The notes under the pieces: model-generated
Seen by the model: only the letters and a program-made list of their open reading frames with translations
Told to the model about the DNA's origin: nothing
The model's database searches: none
DNA from: Promethearchaeota archaeon
Lineage (GTDB): Archaea; Asgardarchaeota; Lokiarchaeia; Sigyniarchaeales; SOKP01
NCBI GenBank assembly: GCA_048937405.1
Contig: JBHLNF010000011.1
Location: 32,001 to 96,000 of the forward strand
Direction: 5' to 3'
Length of the DNA stretch: 64,000 bases
Made by a program: the position numbers and the translations under genes
Part shown: positions 3,207 through 29,195 of the stretch, piece by piece
Numbering within the stretch: position 1 is the stretch's first letter
Layout: the number at the start of each line of letters is the position of its first letter

Positions 3207-4565
3207 TTAAGTTCCAATGAATTTAATAATTTTATCTTTGATTTCATAATTTGGTAGGATATAATCTGCATAACCTTTTTCTGCAGCGAACTTAGGCATT
3301 GCATACAATATACACGTTTCTTCTGCCTCAGCAATTGTTTTTCCGCCTACTTTTTTAATTGCCCCTAAACCTTCTACTCCATCTGATCCCATCCCGGTTA
3401 GAATTACCCCCATAGCACGATTTCTATAAATTTTTGCTGCCGAAAAAAATAATACATCTATGGAAGGCATACAAAAGTTAACTGGAGTTCCTTTATAAAT
3501 TTTAATTGAAGGTGTTTTATTTTTTACAGAAATTTCCATATGCATATCACCTGGAGCAAGATACACATGTCCTGGTTGAAGAAATTCTCCATTTTTTGCT
3601 ACTTTTATTTTAAGAACACATTCCATATCTAAATTATCTGCAAATGCATCAGTAAAATGAGAAGATAAATGCTGAACAATTAAGATTGGAGCATTAATAC
3701 TTCTTGGAATTTCTTTTAATATTGTTGTGATAGTTCTAGGACCCCCAACACTAGCGCCTATAACAATAATATTTGAAGATATAGTAGATCCTTTGATCGG
3801 TGCAAGATCGAGAGTCCTACCAATTTTTCTCTTTTTGATTGGTGTTGATATTGATTTTTTTTGTAAAGTAGATTTAGCTATTTTCTTTTTTGCCTTTTTT
3901 TCTTCTGTTTCTGATTTGATAATTGGTGGTTTAGTAATTTCTTCTTCTGATACTTCTTCTACCATTTGGATATTTTTTTCATCCTTAAGGATTGCCTTGA
4001 CTTTCATAACCTCAAAGGCATCATGTTCTGGTTTTTCTTCAATTTCTTCAATTGGAGTTAATCTATTAAGATATTGTCCAAAATCGAATATACGATCAAC
4101 CATTTCTTGTCGAAGAGATCTACTTTTTTTCAATATACTCTCTTCTTTCCTGAAAATACGTTTAATCTGGGATTGTGATGCTAACAGTACCTTTGCAAGT
4201 AATTCCTCACGAAATCTTGGTAAATCTTTTGCCCCAATACCTCCAGGTTTTATAATATAATCAAATGCTCCCATCAAAAGTGCTTGAATGGAAGAATCTA
4301 GATTCTTTGGACTTATAGCTGAAAGGATAATTGTAGGCGTGGGATGTTCTTCCATAACTAACTTGAATGCATCTAATCCGTTCATTTTAGGCATTACCAA
4401 ATCTAAGACTAATACATCTGGGCTATGTTTTTTATTAAGTTCTACTGCTTCTTTTCCATCCTTTGCAAAGTCAACAATATTTATCGAATCATGTTCTTTA
4501 AGAATATCTGCAATACTCTTTCTTAAATATTGCGAATCATCCGCTATTAATACATCAATCGTCAA
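3207..4565 (-). CDS. cheB: Chemotaxis response regulator/methylesterase CheB, long-linker copy
   Basis: REC domain (IADDS, VLDLVMP, KP); methylesterase motifs GASVGGP, VQHL, PSIDVLF, LTGMGSDG. Confidence 0.95.
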   Translation of the reverse strand: MTIDVLIADDSQYLRKSIADILKEHDSINIVDFAKDGKEAVELNKKHSPDVLVLDLVMPKMNGLDAFKLVMEEHPTPTIILSAISPKNLDSSIQALLMGAFDYIIKPGGIGAKDLPRFREELLAKVLLASQSQIKRIFRKEESILKKSRSLRQEMVDRIFDFGQYLNRLTPIEEIEEKPEHDAFEVMKVKAILKDEKNIQMVEEVSEEEITKPPIIKSETEEKKAKKKIAKSTLQKKSISTPIKKRKIGRTLDLAPIKGSTISSNIIVIGASVGGPRTITTILKEIPRSINAPILIVQHLSSHFTDAFADNLDMECVLKIKVAKNGEFLQPGHVYLAPGDMHMEISVKNKTPSIKIYKGTPVNFCMPSIDVLFFSAAKIYRNRAMGVILTGMGSDGVEGLGAIKKVGGKTIAEAEETCILYAMPKFAAEKGYADYILPNYEIKDKIIKFIGT

Positions 4566-4639
4566 ATAAATTTCCTATTTGCTATTAATTAAATATTCTA
4601 ATAATTAGTAAAGTAAGAAAATTTATATGTTACTAAAAG

Positions 4640-4807
4640 TTAAAAAGGGATTGCTATAATTGCCCCAACTAATTCATCCTTAAATCCTTCTACTGAAGCT
4701 CGAGTAATTATCAAACCATCCAGATTAACGATTAAGACTGCTAAGAGGTTCTGCGCTTCATTCAATAATTTAGTAAGTAATTCTTCAAGATCAGTTACTT
4801 GAGATAT
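4640..4807 (-). pseudogene. Truncated Roadblock/LC7 (MglB-like) reading frame, 55 aa, ATA start; absent from the ORF track
   Basis: Translates ISQVTDLEELLTKLLNEAQNLLAVLIVNLDGLIITRASVEGFKDELVGAIIAIPF*; helix plus AVLIVNLDGLII hairpin is the roadblock N-terminal half (compare 53061 ORF: AIVNRNGLLISS); in-frame TGA two codons upstream. Confidence 0.7.
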
Positions 4808-4846
4808 TTCTCATTCCCTTTGATAGTGTTTTGTTGCTTCCACATT

Positions 4847-5506
4847 TCACAAATTAAGATCATATTTTAAGTTTAAAATCTCAAAAAGGCTCTTTAAAAT
4901 ACTAACAGAAGGTATAAGACAAATAATTCCTTCCAGATTTATTTCAGATACAGTTATTTTTGTATTTATTATAATCAAGTAATCTGATAATTGTGCATAT
5001 TTGGCAATTATAATATCTAAAATGGCATTTAAAGTATCTATTGCTATTTTTGGAATATTTGGAACCAACTTAATTGATAACATATCTGCTAAGGCATTTG
5101 TATAATGACCAGATAAAATGTTTCCTATTTCACTTATAATACTTAATGAAAATTCATCTAAATCCTCAATAGATTTTAGATCCTCAATCGTAAATCTTTC
5201 AGAATTTGTTAATATATTGATTAAATTAACGATTGATTCTTTGGTAAATATCTGAACAATTGCTAAATCTGATTTAAATTGAATTTCTGAATAGATTCCA
5301 ACCATATCAATTGATGTCTTCTCAAATAATTCAGGAACTTTCCAAAAAGAAACAATATCTATGGATGTTAATGAAACTTCAACCTTATTGTTAAGTAATT
5401 TTGATAGTGCTGTTATTGCATGTCCAGAGCCAATATTGCCAAGTTCTTTTAAAATATCTAGTTGTTCATAGCTTAATTTTATATCCCTTGAATCATTCAT
5501 CTTCAA
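4847..5506 (-). CDS. cheC: CheY-P phosphatase CheC
   Basis: Two D/S-x3-E-x2-N sites (DILKELGNIG, SIISEIGNIL); adjacent to cheD. Confidence 0.93.
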   Translation of the reverse strand: MKMNDSRDIKLSYEQLDILKELGNIGSGHAITALSKLLNNKVEVSLTSIDIVSFWKVPELFEKTSIDMVGIYSEIQFKSDLAIVQIFTKESIVNLINILTNSERFTIEDLKSIEDLDEFSLSIISEIGNILSGHYTNALADMLSIKLVPNIPKIAIDTLNAILDIIIAKYAQLSDYLIIINTKITVSEINLEGIICLIPSVSILKSLFEILNLKYDLNL

Positions 5507-5543
5507 TCATCTCAATTTTATATTCTTTTCATAAAAATCTTTT

Positions 5544-6092
5544 TTATTCACGTAATTTTTTAAATTTTGATTCTTTTGTCGAACTAACATATACAGAGAA
5601 TTCTTTAGTGTTAAACTTTACAACTCTACCTTCAGATCCTCCCGTATTTTCTCCAATAATTTTAATTTGTAATTCCTTCAATTTTTTTTTGATTGCATTA
5701 ATGTTTTCAGTGCCTATTGTATTGCCTTCGATATCAAAAATCTTAGAACCTCCAATTATAATTGCTTTTATATTTTTCTTTATAGCCCCATGTTTTATTA
5801 ATTCTTGAACTAATAATTTTACGGAGAGATCGGCATATTTATGAGGAAATTCAATATTTTTATGAAGTTTAGAATTAGAAAGTAATACATGAGACATTCC
5901 ACCAACTCTTTTGAGGGAGTCAAAAAGTATTAAAGCAATACAAGAACCTAATCCAATTATTGATATTTTTGGATCGAAATTTCTCACTTTATTTGTACTA
6001 TGTACAATTACATAATGCCCTATTGGTAAGGCAATTTCACCATCCTTACCTGTTATTTCAATACGTCCATTTGAATTTATCTTTTCCATCAT
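5544..6092 (-). CDS. cheD: Chemoreceptor glutamine deamidase CheD
   Basis: GLGSCIAL, GGMSHVLL, KYAD, GGSKIF, IGTENI, NTGGSEGR motifs. Confidence 0.93.
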   Translation of the reverse strand: MMEKINSNGRIEITGKDGEIALPIGHYVIVHSTNKVRNFDPKISIIGLGSCIALILFDSLKRVGGMSHVLLSNSKLHKNIEFPHKYADLSVKLLVQELIKHGAIKKNIKAIIIGGSKIFDIEGNTIGTENINAIKKKLKELQIKIIGENTGGSEGRVVKFNTKEFSVYVSSTKESKFKKLRE

Positions 6093-6109: not shown

Positions 6110-7267
6110 TTATATTTCATCTTGAGAAATTGAATAATTACTAGCGAATTTTAACATCTGATCTTTAATTTCATAATTTGGAACTATTAATTTAGCAGCT
6201 CCTCTTTTTATGGCTGCTTTGGGCATACCAAAAACCACACAGGTCTGTTCTGATTCTGCAATTGTTTGACCTCCATTTTTTTTAATCGCTTCTAAACCAG
6301 CAGCACCATCCTGTCCCAATCCTGTTAGTAAAATTCCTAAAATTTGACTTTTATATACTTTTGCTGCTGAAAGAAATAACACATCCACCGAAGGCATACA
6401 AAAATTTACAGGTTCTCCATCTACAATCCTAATAAATTGTTGATTATTTCTTTCCACAACCTCCATATGTTTTCCTCCGGGACTAAGATATGTAATACCA
6501 GGAAGAATTTTTTCACCATTTACAGGGATTTTAACTTCAATATTACAGATCTCATTTAATGATTTTGTGAGTTCTTTCATGAAAAATGCATCTAAATGTT
6601 GAACAACTAAAATTGGCATAGGGAAATTTTTTGGAATATCTTTCAAAATTGTTCTTAAGGTTTTTGGTCCACCAGTACTAGTTCCGATTACTATTGCATT
6701 GGATTTAAATCTCGCTTTAGGTATTGGTTTCTTTTTTGGAATTTTTTCAATCTTCGTTTTTGGTTTTTTAGTTATTTGATATTCGGCACTATCTATAGTA
6801 GAATCAAAAGTTTTCTTAATTGATTTTTTTATTAATAAATTTCTTTTTTCATAAGTCTTTTTAATTTTACTAGCATAAAGCGTACTTAAAATTAATTTTT
6901 CTTTTAATTTGGGGAATTCTTTTTTCCATACTCCTTTTGGTTTCACAATAAAATCAAATGCTCCCAAAAGTAACGCTTGAACAGAATCATCTAATGTTTC
7001 TGGAGATTTAGATGTAAATATTATTGTAGGTATAGGATAATGTTCTGAAAGAAATTTAAAGACAGTTATTCCATCTACTTCAGGCATCATTAAATCCAAA
7101 ATTAGTACATCTGGATTAATAGTCTCAATTTTTTCAATTACTTCTCTTCCATTTATTGCAATATCTACTTTAGCTATTTCATCGCTTGATAATAACATAT
7201 TAGTGACTAATTTTCTCTGAAATGTTGAATCTTCTGCTAGTAACACTTTAATTGGTACTATAATCAC
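6110..7267 (-). CDS. cheB: Chemotaxis response regulator/methylesterase CheB, second copy
   Basis: REC (AEDS, ILDLMMP); GTSTGGP, VQHL, PSVDVLF, LTGLGQDG. Confidence 0.95.
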   Translation of the reverse strand: MIIVPIKVLLAEDSTFQRKLVTNMLLSSDEIAKVDIAINGREVIEKIETINPDVLILDLMMPEVDGITVFKFLSEHYPIPTIIFTSKSPETLDDSVQALLLGAFDFIVKPKGVWKKEFPKLKEKLILSTLYASKIKKTYEKRNLLIKKSIKKTFDSTIDSAEYQITKKPKTKIEKIPKKKPIPKARFKSNAIVIGTSTGGPKTLRTILKDIPKNFPMPILVVQHLDAFFMKELTKSLNEICNIEVKIPVNGEKILPGITYLSPGGKHMEVVERNNQQFIRIVDGEPVNFCMPSVDVLFLSAAKVYKSQILGILLTGLGQDGAAGLEAIKKNGGQTIAESEQTCVVFGMPKAAIKRGAAKLIVPNYEIKDQMLKFASNYSISQDEI

Positions 7268-7393
7268 CTTTTTTTAAATATTTTCGACAACTAATTTAAT
7301 TGAAACCAGTTATTTTCATCGATAAGTGAATCAGAAAATTATGATAATTCAATTCAAATCGAATATCATTATTAGGTCTCAATTTTAAACACT

Positions 7394-7945
7394 TTATTTT
7401 TCTAATAATTTTTCAATTTCAGCAAAACGTTGTTGAATATGAGTAATTGAATAAGTTATATGAGCTTGAATTTCCTTAATCTCAGAGAGGATTTTTCTAA
7501 TGCGAGATTTGACTGTTTTAGATAATTCTTTACCATCTCCCATTATTTCAGATTCCAAACTTTGTTCTGAGGATAAGTTTGCCCCATATATAGAAGACGC
7601 TTGAGTTTGAATTACATATCTAGATTGTCCTGGATATTGTAAGTTAGAATTTTGTTCTTTAATTTCTTTGAATATTATATGAAACTCTGAGGGTTCAAGA
7701 CCTTCTTTAATAACTTCATATTTAAAATTATAAAATTTTTTTTTTGTTTTAAGTTTTCCAGCAAAATTAGCTGCCATGTAACGATGGAATAATCGAGAAT
7801 GACTACCTGCCCAAATCCAAATTAGTTTTAATTCTTTGTCTACAATTAAATATACACTATTAGGATCAAAAATCTTCTCTGGTCTTAATTTTAGTGTTTC
7901 ACCTTGCACTTCGTAAATGTAATCGTAATAACCGCTTTTTAACAT
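7394..7945 (-). CDS. Single gelsolin-homology domain protein with C-terminal helical/coiled-coil segment
   Basis: FDPNSVYLIVD..LIWIWAG....LFHRYMAANFA...YEVIKEGLEPSEF fits the gelsolin/villin repeat consensus (vyild..iyvWiG...A..v.EG.Ep.eF). Confidence 0.8.
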   Translation of the reverse strand: MLKSGYYDYIYEVQGETLKLRPEKIFDPNSVYLIVDKELKLIWIWAGSHSRLFHRYMAANFAGKLKTKKKFYNFKYEVIKEGLEPSEFHIIFKEIKEQNSNLQYPGQSRYVIQTQASSIYGANLSSEQSLESEIMGDGKELSKTVKSRIRKILSEIKEIQAHITYSITHIQQRFAEIEKLLEK

Positions 7946-8029
7946 GACATTTCAGTAGATATTGGTTTTGTTGATATATTAAGACTTATTATAAATTTGG
8001 GTTTTTATATTTATTTTAGAAAATTTTAT

Positions 8030-8041
8030 AAAAAAAAAAAA
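8030..8041 (-). terminator. Oligo-U (T12 on minus strand) archaeal-type terminator after the CheW-CheC-CheC gene
   Basis: A12 run about 28 nt beyond the stop codon at 8069. Confidence 0.4.
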
Positions 8042-8068
8042 TAATTGTTTGATAGCTAGTAATAGATT

Positions 8069-10054
8069 TTAAGAATAAAACCTTAAAAGTGCCTCCAATA
8101 ATTCTTGCAGTGTTTCTAAGTTAGGGATAAATAAAAAAGTTCCAGTGACTTTTATATCTGTTATTATTACATTAGTAGTAATTACCAGTGATAATTTTTT
8201 AAGTAAACCAATTTCTTCTTTTAAAATTTTAAATAATTGACGTCCAGTATCTACACTCATATCTGGAGGTTCTGTCATTAATCTTATACCTAGTAGATCT
8301 CCAATAGCACTTACATAATGGCTACCCAATATATGCCCTAGTTCTGATATTGCACTATGATATAATTCAGGAAAATCGGATGCTTTATTTAACTTTTTTC
8401 TTAAATCGATTTGTTTTTTGTCATAATCATCCACTATTATAGAAGTTATATCTATAGCATCTTTCAAATTAAATAAAGTAAGTACCGTAGCTCTTGTTTT
8501 ACCAATTACATTACTCCAAGCAACCAAAAGTTTCTCATTTTTATTACTAATAGAATTCGCATATTCATCTAATTCAACCATCTCGACTGAGGGAATATTT
8601 ATATCTACTCGTTTATTAATCATCTGAGCTAAGGCATTAGCGGCATTTCCTGCACCAATATTTCCGACTTCTTGTAATGCATCTCTTTGTACTTCTGTAA
8701 GTTTTATCTTATCGAGATTAGGGACTTTTGATACTCTCTTTGTTGTCATTGTCTTGACAGCTATATCATGTTCAATTCCTAATCTGTTGAAAAATATCTT
8801 TAAGGTTTCGAGATCAGGAATAAAGAAGAACATACCGGTCAATTTCAAATCTGCTACTTTTATTGAAGTTTTTATTATTATAAAATATTGAGCAATAGAT
8901 TTTAATTCTTGAGAAAGAAATTCTCCGATTTCTCCGGCTTCGCTCATTGTAAATTCAGGAATATCAATCATCATTTTTGTTTCTAGTAAATCAGCTAAGG
9001 CTGAAGCATAATGTCCAGCCATGATATTACCCATCTCTACAATAGTAGAAACTGCAAAATCATCAAGATCCTTTTTAGATTTCACAGATTTAGGATCGAT
9101 TTTAGATTGATTCCCAGCTAAATCCGCAATCAATTTCATTAATGGGTGCATTTCAAAAATATTTAATATAGTTGCTTGAGAAGGTTTATCTATATGACAA
9201 AATATCCCACATACCTTTTCCTTATGTCCTCCAAATTGTTTTGGTAATTCATTTAAGGGTATAATACCTACATCTGTGAGAGAAACATCAATTTTCTTTT
9301 TAACTAATCTTGATAAGGCTGTAACCGCATTACCCGTTCCAATATTACCAAGTTCTTTAAGAATATCTTGCTGTTCCTCTGATAAAGATATTTGTTGAGG
9401 TTTTTTTTCTTCTGGAATTTTTGTTAATTTCATTTCGGACGATATGTTTTGAGGGATTACAACAGTTGATTCAATTGTAGGCTCTATTTTTGGTTTAGAT
9501 TTCAATTTAGGTTGTACTTTAGCACGTTCAAGGACTTTAGGCTTTAATTCTTGCTTCTTATCCGTTTTTTTTCCACTACCTTGTAGATACGGTTGGATTA
9601 AGGCATCTAAATCTAATAATATTAGTGCTTCATCCTGAAAAATTCCTGTTAATTTTATCAATCTAAAATCAATATTAGTTTTAACGATAGTACCCTGCTT
9701 TTTAAAGATTGAAAGGGGAATATCTCTAACACCAATTACAGCATCGACTAATAAAGCAATCTTCAAATCCTCATATTCTAATAGTAAAATTCGTGATGTA
9801 TTAGTGAATCCATAATCAATATCAATATCAGATATATTATGTCTTAAAGAGATAATCGAATAAATTTCTCCTCTTATATTAATAATTCCAACAAGAGATT
9901 TTTCTGCTAGTGGAACAGGAATGATATTTTCTCCTGGAACATATATTTCCTTTACATTTTCAACTTCTATAAGATATCTCTCATCAAGAACTTGAATAAT
10001 CACTACATTTAAAGTATCATTAAATTCCTCATTTTTAGCGTTTATTTCTAACAT
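8069..10054 (-). CDS. CheW-CheC-CheC fusion protein
   Basis: N-terminal CheW (PVPLAEKSLVGIINIRGEI, ALLVDAVIG), K/P-rich linker, then two CheC units (DILKELGNIG/STIVEMGNIM; DALQEVGNIG/SAISELGHIL). Confidence 0.9.
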   Translation of the reverse strand: MLEINAKNEEFNDTLNVVIIQVLDERYLIEVENVKEIYVPGENIIPVPLAEKSLVGIINIRGEIYSIISLRHNISDIDIDYGFTNTSRILLLEYEDLKIALLVDAVIGVRDIPLSIFKKQGTIVKTNIDFRLIKLTGIFQDEALILLDLDALIQPYLQGSGKKTDKKQELKPKVLERAKVQPKLKSKPKIEPTIESTVVIPQNISSEMKLTKIPEEKKPQQISLSEEQQDILKELGNIGTGNAVTALSRLVKKKIDVSLTDVGIIPLNELPKQFGGHKEKVCGIFCHIDKPSQATILNIFEMHPLMKLIADLAGNQSKIDPKSVKSKKDLDDFAVSTIVEMGNIMAGHYASALADLLETKMMIDIPEFTMSEAGEIGEFLSQELKSIAQYFIIIKTSIKVADLKLTGMFFFIPDLETLKIFFNRLGIEHDIAVKTMTTKRVSKVPNLDKIKLTEVQRDALQEVGNIGAGNAANALAQMINKRVDINIPSVEMVELDEYANSISNKNEKLLVAWSNVIGKTRATVLTLFNLKDAIDITSIIVDDYDKKQIDLRKKLNKASDFPELYHSAISELGHILGSHYVSAIGDLLGIRLMTEPPDMSVDTGRQLFKILKEEIGLLKKLSLVITTNVIITDIKVTGTFLFIPNLETLQELLEALLRFYS

Positions 10055-10100
10055 TTTATTTACCTTTTTATTTCTCCTTTTTAATAAATAACTTTGATTT

Positions 10101-10976
10101 TCATTTTAACATAATCCCTTTCCAAATTAATTCTAATTCAGGTTCATCTTCGTTTACTTCTGTAAAAAAATCTACTTGTCTATGTACTGATATTTGCCCA
10201 CCTTTAGAATATTTAAATACATAATTTAACATATCATCTGTATTAGTAAAGTTAAAACCCGCAAGTTTTAATTCAGCATCATTAATAATAATTAAATCTT
10301 CTCTATTAAAAGGACGGTTTTCTTCAATCCATTCAATCCATATCTCTGAATTAAGTTCTTTATTGATAATTTTTATTGATTTATCAATTGGTATATTGCG
10401 GAATGATTTACCTACAGCAAATATGATTTTATCAGGAATTAAATTTTCATTCTTTGCAAATTCATTTATCTTAGCTATTGCTTTATTATAACTATCAATA
10501 TCTAAAACATCATAACATAGAGTTAAAATCACTTCATTTTCTTCAGTTTCAAGAATAAAATCAATTAATAAGTCTGGATTAAGATCTGCGTTAACTTTTA
10601 TCGTTTTGATATTTACGTCTGGTATATATTTAAGATATTGATAAAATCGCCACTTAATGCTTAATTTATCACTTTTTTCCCTGCTAATAAAAATTTGAAA
10701 CATTAATTTTAACTGTTCTATAGTCATTTTTGATAAATTAGCTAGTTTTTCCACATCTTTTCCTAGTTCGACATAATTAATTTTTGATTTTGCATTTGAA
10801 GTTTTTTTTCCAGAAAAATCTTCTAAAAAAATCTTTAATTCATTTTCAGTGAATTGGGGTAGTACTTGTTCAATAAGATATAATAAATATTCTTTTGATT
10901 TGTCATCCATCATTTCATAATACTGTAATTTCATATTATTTCCTCCTAAATTTTTCTTAATTGTTTTTTTATCCAA
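10101..10976 (-). CDS. Hypothetical protein in the che operon
   Basis: 291-aa ORF overlapping the upstream gene by 8 nt; no motif recognised. Confidence 0.7.
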   Translation of the reverse strand: MDKKTIKKNLGGNNMKLQYYEMMDDKSKEYLLYLIEQVLPQFTENELKIFLEDFSGKKTSNAKSKINYVELGKDVEKLANLSKMTIEQLKLMFQIFISREKSDKLSIKWRFYQYLKYIPDVNIKTIKVNADLNPDLLIDFILETEENEVILTLCYDVLDIDSYNKAIAKINEFAKNENLIPDKIIFAVGKSFRNIPIDKSIKIINKELNSEIWIEWIEENRPFNREDLIIINDAELKLAGFNFTNTDDMLNYVFKYSKGGQISVHRQVDFFTEVNEDEPELELIWKGIMLK

Positions 10977-12996
10977 CGAAAAATGATTCTAACTCTGAAA
11001 ATTTTTTATCCTTTCCTGTTATGCTTTTTAGATAATACATTATCTCTCTTTCTTGGTAAGGTAAAAGAGTATCAATTGTGAAAGATATCTTTTGTTCACT
11101 ATTTTTCTTTGATTTACTCAGTTTATATTCTATATTTGAGGATATCATTTCAAAAGACCCTGGAAAAGAATCTGTAATATTAACATCATTCAATTTCATA
11201 TTTGAACCATTTTTTGCAGTAATATATATAGCAAATTCATTAGCATTCCTTCCTGGATAAATTTGTTTTCCAACAATTACTTTACGTCTCTTATGAGAAA
11301 TTCTTATTTTAGATTTATCTGTTTTAGATATCTCATCCGAGATCATAAAATATTCTTTTATATAACGATTTTTATATTTTGAATAAAATGTATAAACTCT
11401 AAGTGGGAAAATATAATCTTTTTTATAATCTGGGTTGACTGCTTTGATAGGATATTTCAATTCCAAGAAATCATCCACAGCAATAATTGATTCCAAAGGA
11501 CTTTTCTTTAAATTGATATTTAATTCAATCGTATGCTCATGAGATGAATCTTCATCATCAGGTTTTAGATTCATCTCAATATCCTCAATATCTAATTTAC
11601 CCGACGATTTGGATAATACAAATTCAGAAATATCTCTTGGAGGTAAAAAGTTTTCAGGGATTTTTTCAATAATTTGAAGACCGTTGATTGGAAGTGATCC
11701 TTGATTATTAATAATTATTTGTGAATGTATTAATGTTTCTTCAAATGATTTAACCTCTTCTTCTGATAATTTCTTTTTTATTGACGAATAAGCAACTTTA
11801 AAGAAATTGTCATCGAATCTAGAAGTAATCATTGAATTCTTCTCAGTTTCGTAACCAACTGTATATCCTACTTTTCTTGAAAAGATTGGCTCCTTCTCAT
11901 CAGTAACATAAAAATAATCTGATTTATATTTACCATGTGGATTAATTACTTTTTTACGTAATACTGATCTATCTAATTCTAGGATTTTGTTTTTTTTTGT
12001 CTTATCAAATATTGTTATAGAGTTTAATTTTAATGTAAAATCACTAAGGTTTTCGAATCTAAGAGAACATTTCCAATTATTAGGTTCATGAATTTTCTCT
12101 GTTTTCTTAATGGCATGCATTGCGTGTGAATATGCTGAGAAATGATCGACTCTTACACCTGATATTACTTTCTTTGATAAATTAAAGGTTACTTCAATGT
12201 TTCCTGTGTTGATATTTTCCTTCTTCTTAGGAAATATTTTCGCATAGATAATAATTTCAGCACTTTCTCCTGGATTTAAATCTTTTAATTGGCTCTCGAT
12301 AGAATTTCTTAAAATTTTAAATTCATTACTTTTATTGCTTTCAAACTCAAAATCATAAAAAGCTGGTACGAACGATTTTTTAAACTTAACATTATCAATT
12401 TTTGTGTTTGAAATGTTAATAATATAAATTGTAAATTTAATTGTATTTTCTTTTCCCCATAAAAGTAAATAATGTTTAGTAGGATTTTTTTTCGAGGATT
12501 CTATTTCATTTAACTCCATATCTTCAAAACTACTTTTAAAGAACCCAATATCTTCACTAAGATTTTCAATACTTTCGTTAACTTCTATTAAATCTGGTAA
12601 ATCTTCAGAATTTACAATTTCATATTTCAATACTTTATTTGAATTAGGCTCAAAGACACCTAAATTAAGATTATTTTCTGCTTTTTGATTATCAAATTGT
12701 GAACCAGAGAATTGTAAATTTGCATCCCAAATTCTATCTTTAACAGAATTATTAAAAATTGAAATATTCCCATTCCCTATAACTGATTTTCTTGTTCTAT
12801 CGTTTTGATAATGATATTCCAAGAATTCTTCATTCAATATTAATACTTCTGATGCAGTACCCATATAACTTGATTCAATTTTTTGTTCTCTATGATTTTT
12901 TTGGATAAGTTTACCGCCTTCCCTGATGGGGATACCAAGAAAATTTGGGCTTATTTTTGTTTTTAATTCGTCAAGATCAATTTTTTTAAAACCCAT
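10969..12996 (-). CDS. Cytoplasmic multi-beta-sandwich (DUF11/Ig-like repeat) protein
   Basis: Recurring I.I.N....I.....D/E.lP..F and I..L.P.E...I.Y motifs (IIINNQGSLPINGLQIIEKIPENF; ITAKNGSNMKLNDVNITDSFPGSF...IDTLLPYQEREIMY); no signal peptide or TM segment. Confidence 0.55.
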   Translation of the reverse strand: MGFKKIDLDELKTKISPNFLGIPIREGGKLIQKNHREQKIESSYMGTASEVLILNEEFLEYHYQNDRTRKSVIGNGNISIFNNSVKDRIWDANLQFSGSQFDNQKAENNLNLGVFEPNSNKVLKYEIVNSEDLPDLIEVNESIENLSEDIGFFKSSFEDMELNEIESSKKNPTKHYLLLWGKENTIKFTIYIINISNTKIDNVKFKKSFVPAFYDFEFESNKSNEFKILRNSIESQLKDLNPGESAEIIIYAKIFPKKKENINTGNIEVTFNLSKKVISGVRVDHFSAYSHAMHAIKKTEKIHEPNNWKCSLRFENLSDFTLKLNSITIFDKTKKNKILELDRSVLRKKVINPHGKYKSDYFYVTDEKEPIFSRKVGYTVGYETEKNSMITSRFDDNFFKVAYSSIKKKLSEEEVKSFEETLIHSQIIINNQGSLPINGLQIIEKIPENFLPPRDISEFVLSKSSGKLDIEDIEMNLKPDDEDSSHEHTIELNINLKKSPLESIIAVDDFLELKYPIKAVNPDYKKDYIFPLRVYTFYSKYKNRYIKEYFMISDEISKTDKSKIRISHKRRKVIVGKQIYPGRNANEFAIYITAKNGSNMKLNDVNITDSFPGSFEMISSNIEYKLSKSKKNSEQKISFTIDTLLPYQEREIMYYLKSITGKDKKFSELESFFVG

Positions 12997-13049
12997 TGCT
13001 TATTTCCTCTAAATTTTTCTTTTTGTGATATATTTATTATTTTAAAAAA

Positions 13050-15122
13050 TTAATTTAAATTAGTAATTATATTTTCTTCTGTTTTAGAGCTAATAATACT
13101 TAAAACATCAAGTATTAAACAAATTGTTCCTTCACCTGTAATTGTAGAGCCTAATATCTCGCGAGAATCAGAATAATTGGATTTAAAAGGTTTTACAACT
13201 ACATCCAGTTGTTGAAGTTGTTTATCGGCAACAAATATAGCTGAATTATCTTCATCCTTTTGACACCATATTGCAATTTTCTTATGAGAATTTGGAGTGC
13301 TTTCAGATCCCATGTTTAGATATTCATTTAAATGAATTAAAGGTATTGTATTTGAATCTATTTTATAATATTGTTCTCCGTCAATATATTCAACTTGGTT
13401 AGGATTGAAAAAATAAATTTGTTTAATATTTTCAGTTGGAATCGCAAATAAATCATCTGCTATTTGGATTAATTGTGCTCTTAAAATTGCCCTTGTAAAG
13501 GGTACGTCTATAGTAAATTTAGTACCTATGTCTTTTTCTGAATGGATTCTTAAATTACCACCTAAATCCTTAATTTTTTCAGCTACAATAGCTAAGCCCA
13601 TACCTCTTCCTGAAATAATATCCGCATCTCCTAATGTAGAAAAGCCGGGTAAAAGAATATAGTGGTGAAGATCTTCTTTTGTTAATTGTTGTGCTTCCTC
13701 GGAGTTATAATAACCTTTGCTTATAACTTTTGCTCTTATTTTATCATAATTAATTCCAGCACCATCATCTTGAATTTCTATGAAAATTGAGCCTGCCCTT
13801 CTGTATGTTTTTAGTTTTAAAACACCAAGTTCATTCTTCCCTTTTTTTTTCCGATTCTTAGGTAATTCAATTCCATGATAAATTGCATTTCTAATTAAAT
13901 GGACTAATGGAGAATTAATTTCTTCTAAGATTTTTCTATCAATTTCAACATTAGTTCCCTCTAGAATAAGCCTAATTTTTTTCCCAGTTTCATTTGCAAC
14001 ATCTCGGACTAATCGTTTATACTTTCTAAATGTTGATTCAACCCTTACTAGTTTTAATTTGAACAGAATTTCTTGAATATCCAAGAAGGGTTTATCCATT
14101 TGATCAATTAACCTTATTATTGTTCTGTCTTCTTTTTCCTTTAAAAGTTGACTAATATGATTTTTCATTATTACGAGTTCTCCGAAGTAATTCATGAGTT
14201 CCTCTAGATATTCAATGTTAACTTTAACACTCATGATTTTTATGTTTTGATCCGAATAACTACCTACAATCCGGGAAACACTCTCTACTTCTTCAATATC
14301 AGCTTCTTCATCAAAATCCTCAATAAGTATTTCCTCACTCATAGATTTTGACTTTTCAAGTTCCCATTTTTCTTTAAGATCATCTATAGTCTTACTAAAT
14401 TCTTCAGATTTTATTGGAGTGATTACTATACTTTCAATTTCAAGAATTTCATCTAAAATCTGAAAAAGATTATCTTTGGTAGTCTGAGTGATGTAAAAGA
14501 TTTCAAACTCACTTCTAATTGTAGCTTTTTCTAGCTCTTCAGGAGTAGGATTAGTCCAACATATTTTACCATTTTCATTTAATGCTCTAAATATTATGAA
14601 TAATCTTACTTTTTTAAAAACACAAGTTTCTTCAAGACGAATATAAATCTTAAATGATTTATTTTTATTTTGACTTAATAATTTTGTAATTTCATCTGAT
14701 TCTAAAGGTTGAATAAAAGTAATACTATAATCCGTTTCAAAAGTATCAAAGCTATTTTTTATATCTTCAACGAAATTTGCATCAAGATCATTCATATTTC
14801 CAGTTTTTACTCGCTTTAAAATATTTCTTAACACATCTAGACTCTCAAATAACATATCTATGAAATTTCCTTGTTTGGTTTTAGAAACATTATTATCTTT
14901 AGCATTATCTAAAAAAGATTCAAAATGATGGCAAAACTTAGACAAATTCTCAAAACCTGCCATAGCAGTTAATCCTTTTAATGTATGAAATGTAAAGAAT
15001 AGTTCTTTAATTGGTTTAGGATTATCTGGATTTTCTTCTAAAGCAAGAATTTCTTCTTCAGTCTTTTGAATTAAATCCTCTGCTTCACTTATGAAAAGCT
15101 TTATATCGTCATCAGATGACAC
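13050..15122 (-). CDS. cheA: Chemotaxis histidine kinase CheA
   Basis: Hpt FHTLKG, P2 region, dimerisation domain, HLIRNAIYHG, DDGAGI, GFST, SGRGMGL, C-terminal CheW-like P5. Confidence 0.97.
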   Translation of the reverse strand: MSSDDDIKLFISEAEDLIQKTEEEILALEENPDNPKPIKELFFTFHTLKGLTAMAGFENLSKFCHHFESFLDNAKDNNVSKTKQGNFIDMLFESLDVLRNILKRVKTGNMNDLDANFVEDIKNSFDTFETDYSITFIQPLESDEITKLLSQNKNKSFKIYIRLEETCVFKKVRLFIIFRALNENGKICWTNPTPEELEKATIRSEFEIFYITQTTKDNLFQILDEILEIESIVITPIKSEEFSKTIDDLKEKWELEKSKSMSEEILIEDFDEEADIEEVESVSRIVGSYSDQNIKIMSVKVNIEYLEELMNYFGELVIMKNHISQLLKEKEDRTIIRLIDQMDKPFLDIQEILFKLKLVRVESTFRKYKRLVRDVANETGKKIRLILEGTNVEIDRKILEEINSPLVHLIRNAIYHGIELPKNRKKKGKNELGVLKLKTYRRAGSIFIEIQDDGAGINYDKIRAKVISKGYYNSEEAQQLTKEDLHHYILLPGFSTLGDADIISGRGMGLAIVAEKIKDLGGNLRIHSEKDIGTKFTIDVPFTRAILRAQLIQIADDLFAIPTENIKQIYFFNPNQVEYIDGEQYYKIDSNTIPLIHLNEYLNMGSESTPNSHKKIAIWCQKDEDNSAIFVADKQLQQLDVVVKPFKSNYSDSREILGSTITGEGTICLILDVLSIISSKTEENIITNLN

Positions 15123-15151
15123 ATAATCACCTTAATTCCTCTTTATTATAA

Positions 15152-15550
15152 TTATTTCTTCTCTACTGGTTTATTTTTAAGTATTCGGTCCATGACCTCT
15201 AATATTTGCTCGGTCTTGAAGGGCTTTTGTATAAAGTCTTTTGCCCCTTTCTTCGCTGCTTCAAGAACTAAAGCTTCCTGACCTAGCGCAGAAACTACTA
15301 TAATTACTGCTTTCGGGTTTATTTTTAAAATCTCCTCTGTTGCTTCAATACCACCCTTTTCTGGCATTACTAAATCCATGGTTACTAAATCAGGATTTAA
15401 TTTCTTATATAGGGAGATTGCTTCTACACCATTCGAAGCTTCGCCTACAACCTCAATTTGTTCGATTTTATTAATTATGTTTTTCAACATATTCCGGGTG
15501 AATTGTGCGTCATCTACTATTAGGACCTTTTTTTTATTATTCTTTGACAT
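15152..15550 (-). CDS. cheY: Chemotaxis response regulator CheY
   Basis: Stand-alone REC (IVDDAQF, TMDLVMP, SALG, FIQKPF) between cheW and cheA. Confidence 0.93.
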   Translation of the reverse strand: MSKNNKKKVLIVDDAQFTRNMLKNIINKIEQIEVVGEASNGVEAISLYKKLNPDLVTMDLVMPEKGGIEATEEILKINPKAVIIVVSALGQEALVLEAAKKGAKDFIQKPFKTEQILEVMDRILKNKPVEKK

Positions 15551-15577
15551 TTTATCAACTCCTATTTTTATTTAAGT

Positions 15578-16111
15578 TTAGGTTGATGCCGATAAATCTT
15601 TCTGGATTTTGAGTTTATCTACATCACTAAAAATCTTACTTAAATCAAGCAATATCCTTGGTCTTTCTTCAAATTTAATAATTCCCTTGATATATTCCAT
15701 TGCAACACTGGTCTGAAATATTGGACTCAATCCTATTATTTCAGCTGGTTTTATATGATCAATACTAAGGATAGAATCTGAATAAAAACCGATTAAATCA
15801 TTATCTATTTTTAGAATTATTATAAATTTTTTATTAGTTTTTGAATCTTGCTTAAATGAAGAACGCCTTGATTGATACAATTCTGAGTTAGTTAATTCTA
15901 ATTTTTTCGTCAGGTTAATTACATGAATAATTTCTCCTCTATAATTGTAAATGCCATCTATATAATCCACACTTTTGGGTAGTTTTCTAACTAAACCTGC
16001 TTGAATTATCTCCTTTACATCATATAAATCTATACAGAACTCTTCCCATCCAATTTGAAAGGATAGGATAGAAACTTGATTCAGTCCTTCATAATTTTGT
16101 TTTTGGCTCAT
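15578..16111 (-). CDS. cheW: Chemotaxis coupling protein CheW
   Basis: SFQIGWEEFCID..VKEII, LPKSVDYIDGIYNYRGEII, IKGIIK...ILLDL. Confidence 0.92.
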   Translation of the reverse strand: MSQKQNYEGLNQVSILSFQIGWEEFCIDLYDVKEIIQAGLVRKLPKSVDYIDGIYNYRGEIIHVINLTKKLELTNSELYQSRRSSFKQDSKTNKKFIIILKIDNDLIGFYSDSILSIDHIKPAEIIGLSPIFQTSVAMEYIKGIIKFEERPRILLDLSKIFSDVDKLKIQKDLSAST

Positions 16112-16129
16112 TTTTTTATAACCTATTTT

Positions 16130-16948
16130 TTATATTATAAAATATTGATTAATTTTTTTTTCAAATTCGTTAAATGGAGTAACATCTCCATTAAAATCTT
16201 TTATATAATCGCGGAAATCGAAGATAAATTCGTCCGCGATAAGATACATATACCTTTGAAGTAATGAATTCATATTTTCAACCAAGAAAGCAAAGATAAC
16301 ATTACTTTTTGATATTACATAAAATTGTTGGTTCCCAAAATTAATTTCCTTAAGCTTTGCTCCCGTTTCCTCACCAATTATCGTATTTGAAAATGACAAT
16401 AAAGCGGATATAAATCCACCTATGTGAACTTCGTGCTCGGCTATATTTGATCGATTTTTATTAATTTTAGATACAAATGGACTTCCTGTAGAACCTATAA
16501 TGAATATTGCAATAACACCATCAGATTTTGGAATTTCAATCTCAGATTTAAAAACATTTTTTATTTCTGATAAAGGAGCATTAGAGAGAATTTGTTTATT
16601 TATTTTTTTCGACAAAAAATATAATTTTGGATAATTAACTGGAACATTTGGTTCTTTTTCTTCCATATACACTATAACAGAAATATTTTTTTCTCCATTT
16701 CTAAAATATTGTATATAAATTGTAAAATCCTCTAATGGAATAATTGAGTTTCCCTGCCTTTTATCAACAATTTCATTTTTATATAACTCAAAAATATTTT
16801 GAATTAACGATACTCCAATGCCCTTCTGAAAAACTACATTGAGCTTTCCACCATTCTCGAGGTCTGAAATGTCCAATAGACCATAACCGAGCATATGTAA
16901 TTTTTCAATTGGTTTACTTGAATTTCGATTTGTATCCATAGCGATCAT
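16130..16948 (-). CDS. Longin-domain protein, possibly with tandem longin-like domains
   Basis: C-terminal IAIFIIGSTGSPFVS...HIGGFISALLSFS...LKEINFG...IFAFLV...IADEF...F.FEKKI is the Asgard longin (sybindin/sigma-adaptin/Mon1-like) pattern. Confidence 0.75.
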   Translation of the reverse strand: MIAMDTNRNSSKPIEKLHMLGYGLLDISDLENGGKLNVVFQKGIGVSLIQNIFELYKNEIVDKRQGNSIIPLEDFTIYIQYFRNGEKNISVIVYMEEKEPNVPVNYPKLYFLSKKINKQILSNAPLSEIKNVFKSEIEIPKSDGVIAIFIIGSTGSPFVSKINKNRSNIAEHEVHIGGFISALLSFSNTIIGEETGAKLKEINFGNQQFYVISKSNVIFAFLVENMNSLLQRYMYLIADEFIFDFRDYIKDFNGDVTPFNEFEKKINQYFII

Positions 16949-17420: not shown

Positions 17421-18065
17421 ATGAATGCTCAAGAGGACCTAAATCAGGGAAATGAAATCTATTTACATGAGATTAATATTCGATGCCCACAATGCTCATC
17501 CAATAAGAATTTGAAGATACCAAAAAAAGTCATCGATCAAAGCAAACAGTTGACTACAATCTCAATTCCTTCAAATTTATGTTGCGAACATAGTTTTCAA
17601 GCTTTTGTGGATAAAAACTTTATTGTTAGAGGCTATCAAAAAGTAGATTTTGAATTCTCACATATGGAATTTTATGAAAGTGGTGATGATACTTCTGATA
17701 CCCTTGAATTTACTTCTTTACCAGTTTTTCAGAATATAATCCAATTATTAAGAGATTGTGTAGATGATAATGAAATAATAGGGTCAGGAATCTTTACCGA
17801 TGAGGGAAAAGTATTATATTCTTCTTTACCGCAAACTACTTTATTCAATACAATTAAAGAATTTGAAGTTCGAAATCAGAAGAACCTAATTAGTGTAAAA
17901 AAAATGTATCTCGAATTAGAGAATAACGAGAAGTTTATCTCGAATGTTTTTTCTTTTAATGGAAATAAATTTAATTTGGTCTTAATGTTTGCTTTTAGAG
18001 TAAAATTTGGGATGGGCAACCTTCACATGCGTGATCTCTTAAAAAAGATAAAAAAAATTCATTGA
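17421..18065 (+). CDS. Zn-ribbon plus roadblock/profilin-like domain protein
   Basis: CPQC...CCEHSFQAFVDKNFIVRGYQ N-terminal metal-binding module; C-terminal IIGSGIFTDEGKVLYSSLP hairpin. Confidence 0.6.
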   Translation: MNAQEDLNQGNEIYLHEINIRCPQCSSNKNLKIPKKVIDQSKQLTTISIPSNLCCEHSFQAFVDKNFIVRGYQKVDFEFSHMEFYESGDDTSDTLEFTSLPVFQNIIQLLRDCVDDNEIIGSGIFTDEGKVLYSSLPQTTLFNTIKEFEVRNQKNLISVKKMYLELENNEKFISNVFSFNGNKFNLVLMFAFRVKFGMGNLHMRDLLKKIKKIH

Positions 18066-23250: not shown

Positions 23251-24096
23251 ATGATTGAGTACATCATAATTGCTATTCTTCAAGGTTTATTTGAATGGCT
23301 TCCAATATCCTCTAGCGGTCAAACTATGATTATTTCTATGAATATATTTGGTATATCTGCTGATGAAGCATTCAGTCTTAGCATATGGTTACATTTAGGT
23401 ACAACCTTAGCTGTTTTATTGAAGTTTAAAACAGATTATATTAAGATTATAAAAAGTATTATACCACGGACATTTATCATAGATGAAATTGATATCAGAA
23501 AGAGAAATTGGTTGATATATGCTACGATTGGGACAGCAATTACAGCCTTACCACTTTATTTTATCTTTAGATTTATCATTTCAGGCGCATTTACTCCATT
23601 CCAAGGGGACTTAATCACTCTATTAGTTTGTGGATTATTGATTATTACTGGTATAATTTTATTGAAATCAAGAAAAATCTATGGAGAAAATTCTATAGAA
23701 AAAGTGCCAGAAAAATTCATACGAAAAGATAGTTTTGTATCTGGGCTAATTCAAGGTTTCTCGATATTACCTGGTATCTCCCGTTCTGGAGTTACTGTTT
23801 CATCAATTCTAATAGAAAATTATGACCAAGATAATGCTCTAAGATTAAGTTTTTTAATGTCTGCACCTGTTGTTATTGCTTCAATCATAGTTGATATAAT
23901 TTTTGGGGGGAATTCAATATTTCGAGTAATTAGTCCTGTTATTATTGTTATCACGGTATTGATTTCTTTTATAATTGGCTATTTATCCATAGAGTTCTTA
24001 CTTAAAATAGCTCAAAAAATTAGCTTTGGTTATTTCTGCATTTTATATGGTGTAATAGCTTGTTTGATTATTATTCCTTTTATGATAATATCTTAA
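23251..24096 (+). CDS. uppP: Undecaprenyl-diphosphate phosphatase (BacA family)
   Basis: QGLFEWLPISSSG, LHLGT, PGISRSGVT, RLSFL. Confidence 0.92.
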   Translation: MIEYIIIAILQGLFEWLPISSSGQTMIISMNIFGISADEAFSLSIWLHLGTTLAVLLKFKTDYIKIIKSIIPRTFIIDEIDIRKRNWLIYATIGTAITALPLYFIFRFIISGAFTPFQGDLITLLVCGLLIITGIILLKSRKIYGENSIEKVPEKFIRKDSFVSGLIQGFSILPGISRSGVTVSSILIENYDQDNALRLSFLMSAPVVIASIIVDIIFGGNSIFRVISPVIIVITVLISFIIGYLSIEFLLKIAQKISFGYFCILYGVIACLIIIPFMIIS

Positions 24097-24986
24097 AGGT
24101 TTTCTATAAAGTTCTCAATAAAATTTTTTAACTCTAAATCTGCTTTGGGAATTCCTTTAAAACTTGGAAAATCATTTAAATCTATAATATAATATTTATC
24201 AAAGTCAACTGGTCGAACTAAATCAAATCCGAAAATCTTGAGATTTAATTCTTTAGATAAAATTTTTGATAATTTCTTAATATCTTCTGTTACTTCAAAC
24301 TCTTCTCGCTCAATTAAACTTACATCAATATTTTCTGGTTTATCTCTTAAATAAATATAAATAGGATTTTCCCTCTCAATACCGAATACCTTATCACCAA
24401 TCACATATATTTTTCTCTCAATACCATCACATTCTATAAATTCTTGAATATATACATCATAAGATAGGAATTCTTTATATCTCTCACAAAATTTATCTAT
24501 ATCCTCAATCTTTTGAACCAAAAAGTTGAATCTATTGTATTTATCATGTTGATAATGACTTTTAATAACTATAGGTAACTTTTTTGATACCCATTTCTTA
24601 AATTTTTCAAGATCAGACAATGACTGGTTCCAAGAATTGGGTAGTAAAAAATTTTCAAGAACTTTTTTATGTGTATTGAATATTTTTCTTATAGCATAAT
24701 CAAGAGCAATTTTATTCATACATAATAATACAGTATCTATATTGTGAAGTGTGGGGAGATTATAGATTTTAGCATAATGTAATAAATCTATAGAACATTC
24801 ATTCCTGACTTTTACTATAATTAAGTCTGTTTCTAATAATTCTGGCGGCATTTCAGAAAGACAGTAGAAATGTTTTGTCGGATCATGCAATATCAGTTTA
24901 ATATTTTTAATCTCCTTTAACTTCTTAATTAACTTTGTAATAACTTCATGATCTTGTCTTGCGGAAAAAAAAATTTTTTTTTTCAT
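24093..24986 (-). CDS. ATP-grasp inositol phosphate kinase, ITPK1-like (track starts at TTG 25043; ATG 24986 preferred)
   Basis: IQEFI..DG.ERKIYVIGD, LKIFGFD, YIIDLNDFPSF resemble ITPK1 QEFV/KVYVVG/FxxD/VIDINxFPG; next to INO1. Confidence 0.8.
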   Translation of the reverse strand: MKKKIFFSARQDHEVITKLIKKLKEIKNIKLILHDPTKHFYCLSEMPPELLETDLIIVKVRNECSIDLLHYAKIYNLPTLHNIDTVLLCMNKIALDYAIRKIFNTHKKVLENFLLPNSWNQSLSDLEKFKKWVSKKLPIVIKSHYQHDKYNRFNFLVQKIEDIDKFCERYKEFLSYDVYIQEFIECDGIERKIYVIGDKVFGIERENPIYIYLRDKPENIDVSLIEREEFEVTEDIKKLSKILSKELNLKIFGFDLVRPVDFDKYYIIDLNDFPSFKGIPKADLELKNFIENFIENL

Positions 24987-25242
24987 TGATTTGGTAATAG
25001 TTTTTATCCCATATTTATTGTTATAATATTTTAATGCTTTCAATCCACATATAGTATATTTAATAATAATTTAATAATTAAAACATCATTTATAGGTTAA
25101 GATTACTTAATTAAAATTAAAACTTGAGTTCAATTCTATTAAATTCACCTTTATTTATCTTTATGATTCATACATCTAAGTATTAAATCTTTATGGTATT
25201 TTAAAATGATTTAAATATTATTACTATATTATACAAAATATC

Positions 25243-26337: not shown

Positions 26338-26376
26338 ATATATTTTAAGGTTGGAATAGTCTTCTAAACTTTATTC

Positions 26377-27285: not shown

Positions 27286-27537
27286 GTAAAAATCCCTAAT
27301 ATTTTGATGAATTATGAGTTAATTATGTTATTTAAATATATTGATTAATTCCTGTTGTTAAACGCTTTAGTAGTAAAAAATCCTTACAATTTCAACTTAC
27401 TTGAAAATCACCAGTTTAATTTCAGAATTAATAGTTTAAATTTTAATTCTAAGTGTATTTATTTTAAATATTTTTTTTATTTAATATTAAATAAATTAAC
27501 CGTTTTTTTTTTATAAAATATACTCAAGGTAAATTAT

Positions 27538-28353: not shown

Positions 28354-28358
28354 AGTTT

Positions 28359-29159: not shown

Positions 29160-29195
29160 AATAATTTATGATTTTTGATTAATAGTTTTTGAAAA

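Follow-up and report, generated by a model that had tools for sequence, protein, structure and literature searches.

Which output does a chemosensory (che) system control in an archaeon in which no archaellum can be found? The question arises from a stretch of 64,000 nucleotides (nt) of a Promethearchaeota archaeon (assembly GCA_048937405.1, contig JBHLNF010000011.1, positions 32,001 to 96,000; the whole stretch is hereafter called the window), which holds a full che gene cluster and, inside it, a gene for a small gelsolin-domain protein, here called P0001. In the canonical archaeal route, phosphorylated CheY (CheY-P) acts through CheF on the archaellum switch (PMC9680633). In the genome that the window comes from (4.47 Mb, 29 contigs, 100% complete by markers), neither CheF nor archaellin nor the T2SSF platform protein was found, and hits for T2SSE were weak only; among 45 CheA-bearing Asgard genomes, CheF was found in none and archaellin in a single one, which is of a non-Loki type. 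Because a full che system is present in the genomes studied but no CheF or archaellum was found, what it controls becomes a question. The window's genome also carries at least 11 genes for methyl-accepting chemotaxis proteins (MCPs) and five actin-family genes, Lokiactin among them. Chemoreceptor arrays have been seen and che genes reported in L. ossiferum (PMC9834061), and Asgard cells have been described to crawl by Lokiactin-dependent protrusions, with gelsolins and profilins as proposed regulators, five gelsolins co-precipitating with Lokiactin in cultured L. ossiferum, and chemotaxis left unmentioned (PMC13716822). Asgard gelsolins, including those with a single domain and a coiled-coil extension, are already known (PMC7444086, PMC9433394); full-text literature searches found no paper linking gelsolin and che genes in Asgard archaea.

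A first-pass annotation of this DNA had singled out P0001 as the best candidate effector linking che signalling to Lokiactin, a place that it may hold. Comparison across genomes shows that, in one Loki-type Asgard family, the che cluster has a gelsolin protein with a coiled-coil tail as a fixed member under selection. That the protein is a dedicated component of the che system is very likely, and to the whole chain, in which it couples che sensing to Lokiactin, we give a probability of roughly 45%. The gene stands between the signalling half and the adaptation half of the cluster, which is laid out in the window as follows:

16130 to 16948, minus strand: conserved gene of 272 amino acids (aa) heading the cluster, no Pfam match; signalling half, which, leaving aside the CheW-CheC-CheC gene, spans 10101 to 16948
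15578 to 16111, minus strand: cheW (Pfam); signalling half
15152 to 15550, minus strand: cheY (Pfam); signalling half
13050 to 15122, minus strand: cheA (Pfam); signalling half
10969 to 12996, minus strand: 675-aa DUF11-like protein (Pfam); signalling half
10101 to 10976, minus strand: 291-aa protein of no assigned family; signalling half
8069 to 10054, minus strand: CheW-CheC-CheC fusion gene, upstream neighbour of the gelsolin gene (Pfam: CheW, CheC three times, CheX)
7394 to 7945, minus strand: che-linked gelsolin-domain gene (P0001, 183 aa, ATG start), an open reading frame with 147 full-length homologues
6110 to 7267, minus strand: cheB (REC and methylesterase; Pfam), downstream neighbour in the window genome
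5544 to 6092, minus strand: cheD (Pfam); adaptation half, whose remainder beyond the first cheB spans 3207 to 6092
4847 to 5506, minus strand: cheC (Pfam); adaptation half
4649 to 4807, minus strand: relic of a roadblock-Ras GTPase gene, 72% identical to residues 1-53 of a 318-aa protein in relative L002
3207 to 4565, minus strand: second cheB (Pfam); adaptation half

Both neighbours of the gelsolin gene were identified by Pfam, which bears out its first-pass placement between the CheW-CheC-CheC gene and cheB on the same strand, and the intergenic gaps, put at about 120 nt in that reading, measure 123 nt upstream and 126 nt downstream. The open reading frame is real beyond chance, given its 147 full-length homologues and a dN/dS of 0.12 over the whole gene when compared with L002. 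The homologues, recovered by a word-indexed search, are nearly all 174-200 aa long with full-length coverage and come from Promethearchaeota-type metagenome-assembled genomes; HMMER, run exhaustively on 1.84 billion cluster representatives, gave 103 hits at E <= 1e-3, including 15 at E <= 1e-30. Computed against the L002 orthologue, dN/dS was 0.08 for residues 1-109, 0.42 for the linker that follows and 0.09 for the tail; at the codon level, then, both domain and tail are under strong purifying selection.

The position of the gene is as conserved as would be expected of a core che component. We mapped the proteins of the window's cluster by tblastn onto 27 related loci from different species genomes (45-84% identity), and in 27/27 the gelsolin gene lies directly downstream of the CheW-CheC-CheC gene on the same strand, so that the neighbourhood analysis proposed in the first pass reveals a non-random context. 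Loci with enough flank share one order: the 272-aa gene, cheW, cheY, cheA, the DUF11-like gene, the 291-aa gene, CheW-CheC-CheC, gelsolin and the adaptation genes. Shortly after the gelsolin stop, 17 loci have the start of a cheR gene identified by Pfam (10-12 nt away in 15 of them, 23 and 30 nt in the other two), which sits between the gelsolin gene and cheB; no cheR stands behind the gelsolin gene in the window or in L001, L005, L010, L013, L014, L024 and L025, and the window genome has two CheR-domain genes at other sites (C13:320499-321020 and C28:382680-383261). The downstream neighbour of the gelsolin gene varies between cheR, cheB and cheD, accessory genes come and go, and cheR and the roadblock-GTPase gene have been lost from some clusters; the gelsolin gene has been lost from none of the 27. 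In the closed genome G325 (L009), the cluster is split 1.08 Mb apart on one chromosome, with cheA at 0.356 Mb and CheW-CheC-CheC, gelsolin, cheR and cheB at 1.44 Mb; the half that kept the gelsolin gene is the one with CheW-CheC-CheC and the adaptation genes. At the edge of the cluster, the 272-aa leading gene is retained in most loci, as is a divergently oriented 214-aa Cys-rich gene without a Pfam match (17421-18065, plus strand).

Does the gene also come and go with the che system? We examined a phylum-wide sample of 301 Asgard genomes and every one of the 134 in the GTDB family to which the window belongs. Of the 301 genomes, 13 have a full-length orthologue at E <= 1e-63, all of them in the window's family, and the next hits in this sample lie at E >= 5e-20. 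The window's type of CheA, recognised at 54% identity or more, is found in the same 13 genomes and in G216; in 31 other genomes the CheA is at most 38% identical, and none of these holds the gelsolin orthologue. Within the family, 38/134 genomes carry the gelsolin gene, always as a single copy; the Loki-type CheA is present in all 38 carriers, and the gelsolin gene is absent from all 90 family genomes without that CheA. The five family genomes that have the CheA and lack the gelsolin gene are G216, G339 and G311, where the contig breaks off 0.6-2.1 kb from cheA (2.1 kb in G216) on the side that matters, G310, which is 74% complete, and G323, which holds a cheA fragment only. Gene content across these genomes shows that the presence of the gelsolin gene follows the Loki-type che system. 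In the window's own genus 21 of 53 genomes carry the gene, a split which implies that the whole che system has repeatedly been gained or lost, and the gelsolin gene with it.

Upstream of the gelsolin gene are two signals that bear on how it is expressed:

8030 to 8041, minus strand (A12 on the plus strand): T12 tract past the CheW-CheC-CheC stop, likely an archaeal oligo-T termination signal
7973 to 8000, minus strand: promoter-like block CCAAAT-T/C-AAATATAA, then in relatives a TTTATAAAATA-like TATA element (alignment of 14 upstream regions)

The T12 tract, already noticed in the first pass, is the only homopolymer of at least 11 bases in the window (GC 28.6%), and tracts of T7-T14 occur at the equivalent place, shortly after the CheW-CheC-CheC stop, in most orthologous loci. 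The conserved block, written GAATATCCAAAT-T/C-AAATATAA, lies about 25-55 nt ahead of the ATG, with the TTTATAAAATA-like element at about 25-35 nt. In the light of general knowledge of archaeal transcription, these signals would be an oligo-T terminator and an archaeal TATA-type promoter, and the earlier suspicion that the gene has its own promoter is strengthened by the conservation of both the poly-T tract and the TATA-like block. The promoter-like element, together with the 10-12 nt spacing to cheR, suggests that the gelsolin gene normally heads a gelsolin-cheR-cheB-cheD-cheC transcription unit. A promoter of its own does not uncouple the gene from che, since cheR follows 10-30 nt downstream in 17 relatives.

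The same promoter-like element and upstream poly-T would also suit an ordinary actin regulator that was inserted once, with its own promoter, into an ancestral che cluster and has since been kept there by linkage. At least five more gelsolin-domain genes lie at other places in the window genome, and with all carriers in one family a single ancestral insertion could suffice. We consider this very unlikely, as the gelsolin gene has been neither lost nor relocated in 27 loci spanning down to 45% identity, unlike cheR and the roadblock-GTPase gene; no orthologue occurs in the 90 che-less family genomes, though Lokiactin there is near-identical (95-100% where examined); and the 10-12 nt to cheR in 15 loci suggests co-expression. 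Pairwise distances of the gelsolin protein also track those of the cluster genes (r 0.65-0.83) and not those of flanking housekeeping genes (r 0.56 and -0.20), in what is a weak test with 11 taxa. After control, the cluster genes of these 11 taxa all correlate alike (r 0.63-0.83) and no partner stands out; CheY has the lowest correlation because it hardly varies.

The variable genes of the cluster raise another possibility, namely that the gelsolin protein is steered by the cluster's roadblock, longin-like and Ras-like GTPase genes and not by CheY-P or CheC. In Myxococcus, the Frz chemosensory system acts on MglA/MglB polarity in a non-swimming, surface-moving cell, in a cluster or pathway that includes a Ras-like GTPase and a roadblock protein and is not known to involve gelsolin or actin; if the Asgard cluster worked in this manner, the gelsolin protein would be the GTPase's effector on the actin side. 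The likeness to Frz lies in the roadblock-Ras fusion gene of the relatives' clusters, which is found in the adaptation half of 16/27 loci, mostly between cheC and the second cheB, and is intact, for example, in L002 (14051-15007, 318 aa); Myxococcus belongs to a different domain of life. A paralogue of P0001 in che-less genomes (172-182 aa) also adjoins roadblock-like, FIST and Ras/Roc-LRR GTPase genes, although the roadblock match beside it falls under the Pfam cut-off. Against such steering, the window genome retains its gelsolin gene though its roadblock-GTPase gene is a 53-codon relic, the clusters of L001, L005, L024 and L025 are likewise without the roadblock-GTPase gene, and the invariant neighbour is CheW-CheC-CheC and not a GTPase. 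We regard a GTPase partner as distinctly unlikely.

The paralogous family shares the domain-linker-helix plan of P0001, its domain being 30-40% identical, and was seen in genomes without a che system. Its neighbours are a roadblock-like gene, a gene for a 311-323-aa protein, a FIST gene and a gene for a divergent Ras/Roc-LRR GTPase, in groups located at 6995-10278 and 3775-6615 of L050 and at 6944-10196 of L047; in L050 the divergent Ras/Roc-LRR protein is a membrane protein of 946 aa.

What kind of protein, then, is P0001? Its parts, all encoded on the minus strand, are as follows:

7655 to 7945, minus strand: gelsolin domain, residues 1-97 (AlphaFold2 (AF2) confidence, pLDDT, above 90; Foldseek and VIA matches to ProGel 7c2f)
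7619 to 7636, minus strand: Y/F-P-G-Q/E-S-R motif (YPGQSR here), residues 104-109, just past the domain
7526 to 7618, minus strand: variable, probably disordered linker, residues 110-140 (pLDDT below 50 for residues 115-137)
7397 to 7525, minus strand: coiled-coil-type C-terminal helix, residues 141-183 (a single AF2 helix at 143-182, pLDDT 89-93)

By sequence, Gelsolin (PF00626) is the sole family listed in a Pfam scan of P0001, with 13.2 bits (E 0.08), under the 21-bit gathering cut-off, and an NCBIfam search gave matches at noise level only. A phmmer search of the PDB gave villin at E 3.1e-5 and Thorarchaeota ProGel (7c2f) at E 3.6e-5, the latter gapless over residues 24-89, followed by Heimdall 2DGel (5e-5) and Thor 2DGel3 (1e-4), and a profile built from 43 orthologues, which are 46-90% identical to P0001, matched ProGel at E 4.7e-6. 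P0001 is a divergent member of the gelsolin family despite its sub-threshold Pfam score, and not a non-member, because phmmer and profile matches to Asgard gelsolins reach E 4e-5 to 5e-6 and because the L050 paralogue passes Pfam Gelsolin at 24.4 bits. The alignment of 43 orthologues, on which all conservation figures below are based, yields an AF2 model with a pLDDT of 81 overall and above 90 over residues 10-100, in which the secondary-structure elements of the domain follow the gelsolin order. The Foldseek check suggested in the first pass returned ProGel bound to actin as the top match (E 2.4e-6, TM 0.76 on the target, root-mean-square deviation (rmsd) 2.1 A), with the Asgard 2DGels next and then eukaryotic gelsolin, adseverin and CapG domains. 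VIA, a search independent of Foldseek, placed ProGel at Z 12.1 among 48,161 representatives (rmsd 2.0 A, 85/88 residues aligned), and every one of the 17 chains at Z >= 8 is a domain of the gelsolin family. Invariant D36, W45 and G47, aligned with the D, W and G of ProGel, make up the D..W..G hallmark by which gelsolins are told apart from cofilins (PMC7444086). Modelling and searches together make it practically certain that the domain has a gelsolin fold of the ProGel type, with a central beta-sheet flanked by one long and one short helix, so that the fold named in the first pass stands.

ProGel (PDB 7C2F, PMC7444086) is the best match in structure and among the best in sequence, at about 25% identity, and it shares with P0001 the single gelsolin/cofilin-type domain and the D..W..G hallmark; its reported lack of Ca2+ sites parallels the non-acidic ligand positions of P0001. 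It consists of the domain alone (88-94 aa), to which P0001 adds the YPGQSR motif, the linker and a 40-residue helix, and no che context has been reported for it. The fold also agrees with that of 2DGel (7C2G/7C2H, 7WHF, 7WHG), gelsolin, villin and CapG (Z 9-10.4), whose long helix contacts actin. In P0001 the corresponding helix, S50-K66, is invariant at 14/17 positions and at least 90% conserved at one more, which implies that both of its faces are constrained, as expected of a binding surface. Unlike the Ca2+-regulated gelsolins, P0001 has one domain in place of two to six and no WH2-like LRRV linker.

A gelsolin fold may also serve partners other than actin. The gelsolin-like domain of Sec23 and Sec24 has the same fold at about 10% identity (Z 7.2 and 5.6), is embedded in a large COPII subunit and shows that non-actin partners are possible; twinfilin follows at Z 4.7. 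P0001 could thus be a scaffold of the che array without any link to the cytoskeleton, its fold reused as a protein-protein module that binds a Che or MCP partner, its tail packed on the helical bundles of the array, and its role structural or regulatory within the che system. The strict synteny and the co-occurrence with che genes would suit such a scaffold equally, as would the atypical gelsolin sequence, with its 13 bits in Pfam and a long helix rich in Arg, His and Tyr, unlike the 2DGel of the window's own genome; the Sec23a match at Z 7.2 and the non-acidic Ca2+ ligand positions described below point the same way. Nevertheless, actin-binding gelsolin domains reach Z 9-12, with all of them above the Sec23/24 domains at Z 5-7; the nearest relatives in both sequence and structure are Asgard gelsolins crystallised on actin; and conservation falls on the surface of the long helix, the element by which the gelsolin family binds actin. 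A scaffold without actin is in our judgement fairly unlikely.

In the HMMER alignment to domain 1 of 2DGel3, the Asp ahead of the central strand is replaced by Gly/Ser30 and the Glu at the helix start by an invariant His54. The two 2DGel3 residues, the strand Asp and the long-helix Glu, are presumably the type-2 Ca2+ ligands of gelsolins, so the acidic ligands that mark Ca2+-regulated gelsolins are absent from P0001. ProGel, too, is without Ca2+ sites (PMC7444086). Control of P0001 by Ca2+ is unlikely, as judged from these aligned positions and from the example of ProGel, and the Ca2+ dependence implied in the first pass is disfavoured.

Past the domain, P105, G106 and R109 of the Y/F-P-G-Q/E-S-R motif are invariant, and Y/F104, Q/E107 and S108 are at least 86% conserved. 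The linker that follows varies among orthologues in both length and sequence; it had been called Ser-rich, and while a linker is indeed present, its Ser enrichment is mild only (6 of 31 residues). The amphipathic C-terminal helix that had been predicted is well supported, as hydrophobic columns at 149, 152, 156, 159, 163, 167, 170, 174, 177 and 181, spaced 3-4-3-4-4-3-4-3-4, give a heptad pattern with one stutter, in a segment modelled with a pLDDT of 89-93. Near-invariant polar positions (E155, E158, Q160, H162, Y165, S166, R173 and K179) accompany them, and on account of this combination we read the tail as a coiled-coil helix that may present a specific surface to a partner. Structural matches to the tail in VIA were generic coiled coils alone (Z about 5), and the tail on its own found no usable match in the ESM Atlas. 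Two candidate functions for the tail were considered and set aside. As a substrate of CheR, CheB or CheD, its T-x-x-Q-Q-x-x-A at residues 168-175 resembles the MCP methylation consensus, but the QQ pair is not conserved (Q/E/H/N at 171 and Q/E/R/K at 172). As a CheY-binding peptide of the FliM or CheZ kind, its 'ILSEIKEI' is in a mismatched register and found no supporting evidence.

Does P0001 act on actin? Binding is somewhat more probable than not. The expected mode of behaviour is suggested by Thor 1DGelX, in which a gelsolin domain is joined to a coiled-coil domain X and which binds actin with a dissociation constant (Kd) of 7.7 uM and nucleates, severs and sequesters it without Ca2+ (PMC7444086). 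P0001 has the plan of that class, one gelsolin domain and then a predicted coiled-coil region, and is likened to it by architecture alone; it is much shorter, 1DGelX being roughly twice its length as judged from its running near the size of actin on gels, and no che linkage has been reported for 1DGelX. By analogy, P0001 is predicted to nucleate, sever and sequester actin in a Ca2+-free manner. P0001 stands out from the Asgard gelsolins known so far by its compact 183-aa plan, its non-acidic Ca2+ positions and its conserved tail, and most of all by being obligately linked to che.

Lokiactin itself is encoded at C25:219072-220214 in the window genome (L052 1495-2640, minus strand), and a second actin, 85% identical to it, lies on C7. 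Wherever it was examined, across 13 genera of the family (relatives L059-L087), the Lokiactin protein is 95-100% identical, which is far more conserved than any protein of the che cluster. The other gelsolin-domain genes of the window genome number at least five (L028, L029, L031, L032 and L034), the closest being 25% identical to P0001. They include a 338-aa 2DGel that ends in a zinc-ribbon-like CxxC...CxxC motif, a 195-aa protein made of a gelsolin domain plus helices, two proteins of the 1DGelX kind with long C-terminal regions (361 and 403 aa), and a 261-aa protein in which a gelsolin-like N-terminus is followed by several hydrophobic, membrane-like segments.

We hypothesize that the gelsolin domain uses its invariant long helix to bind Lokiactin in the cleft between subdomains 1 and 3, a mode which we infer from the way that ProGel and 2DGel bind rabbit actin, and that this binding is probably Ca2+-independent. 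The tail helix would either self-associate or join a partner in the chemoreceptor array, for which the CheW-CheC-CheC protein is the most plausible choice. Mechanistically, the sensing apparatus might thereby be physically coupled to actin filaments, and signalling could locally bias filament capping, severing or anchoring, and hence the growth of protrusions. Beyond such coupling, the che signal itself would have to control the activity of P0001, which we find doubtful. A broader proposal is that the MCP-CheA-CheY pathway, complete with CheC, CheD, CheB and CheR, has the actin cytoskeleton and not a rotary motor as its output; the signal would then act on the gelsolin protein via CheY-P, the CheW-CheC-CheC protein or a co-encoded GTPase module, and the gelsolin protein, by capping, severing or anchoring Lokiactin close to the receptor array, would steer Asgard crawling. 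In this full form the proposal is unlikely at present. The comparison with CheF is a functional analogy only, in that both would be small che-associated proteins, P0001 possibly joining the signalling core to a motility apparatus; P0001 occurs where CheF was not found, has no sequence or fold relation to it, and gives no match to CheF-arch (PF04283) in Pfam.

Several points weigh against a coupling of che to Lokiactin through P0001. Actin binding and contact with a Che protein are both inferred, and a gelsolin fold is no guarantee of actin binding, as the Sec23/24 matches illustrate. ProGel, the closest structure, binds actin weakly, with a Kd of about 337 uM (PMC7444086). A gene inside a cluster may be gained and lost with that cluster through physical linkage alone, related genomes are non-independent samples, and the evidence comes entirely from one family of uncultured organisms. 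With a conserved poly-T tract and promoter upstream, the gelsolin gene does not depend simply on read-through from the signalling half. Libraries of 5.8 and 1.8 billion proteins gave no protein in which the domain is joined to a Che domain; a search of the 322-2000 aa range yielded no longer or fused form, and none of the 103 representative hits carries a Che fusion, all of which is weak evidence.

With no CheF or archaellum found beside a full che system, a protein of gelsolin fold that only ever stays, disappears or moves together with that system is the most concrete and directly testable candidate for a link to the output. If the coupling is real, it would show bacterial-style two-component chemosensing wired to the actin cytoskeleton before eukaryotes, and an actin output would make the system a prokaryotic forerunner of amoeboid chemotaxis. 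If the link fails, the protein would still represent a gelsolin architecture that is new and independent of Ca2+, and it would be interesting in its own right to see the fold used for something other than actin.

Elsewhere in the window, positions 24093-30158 hold an inositol-phosphate gene group with a myo-inositol-1-phosphate synthase. The group includes two proteins with an inositol 1,3,4-trisphosphate 5/6-kinase ATP-grasp domain, two more ATP-grasp-like paralogues, and a HAD hydrolase with a long repetitive Lys/Tyr-rich tail (KKEYKK repeats). Phosphoinositides regulate eukaryotic gelsolins.

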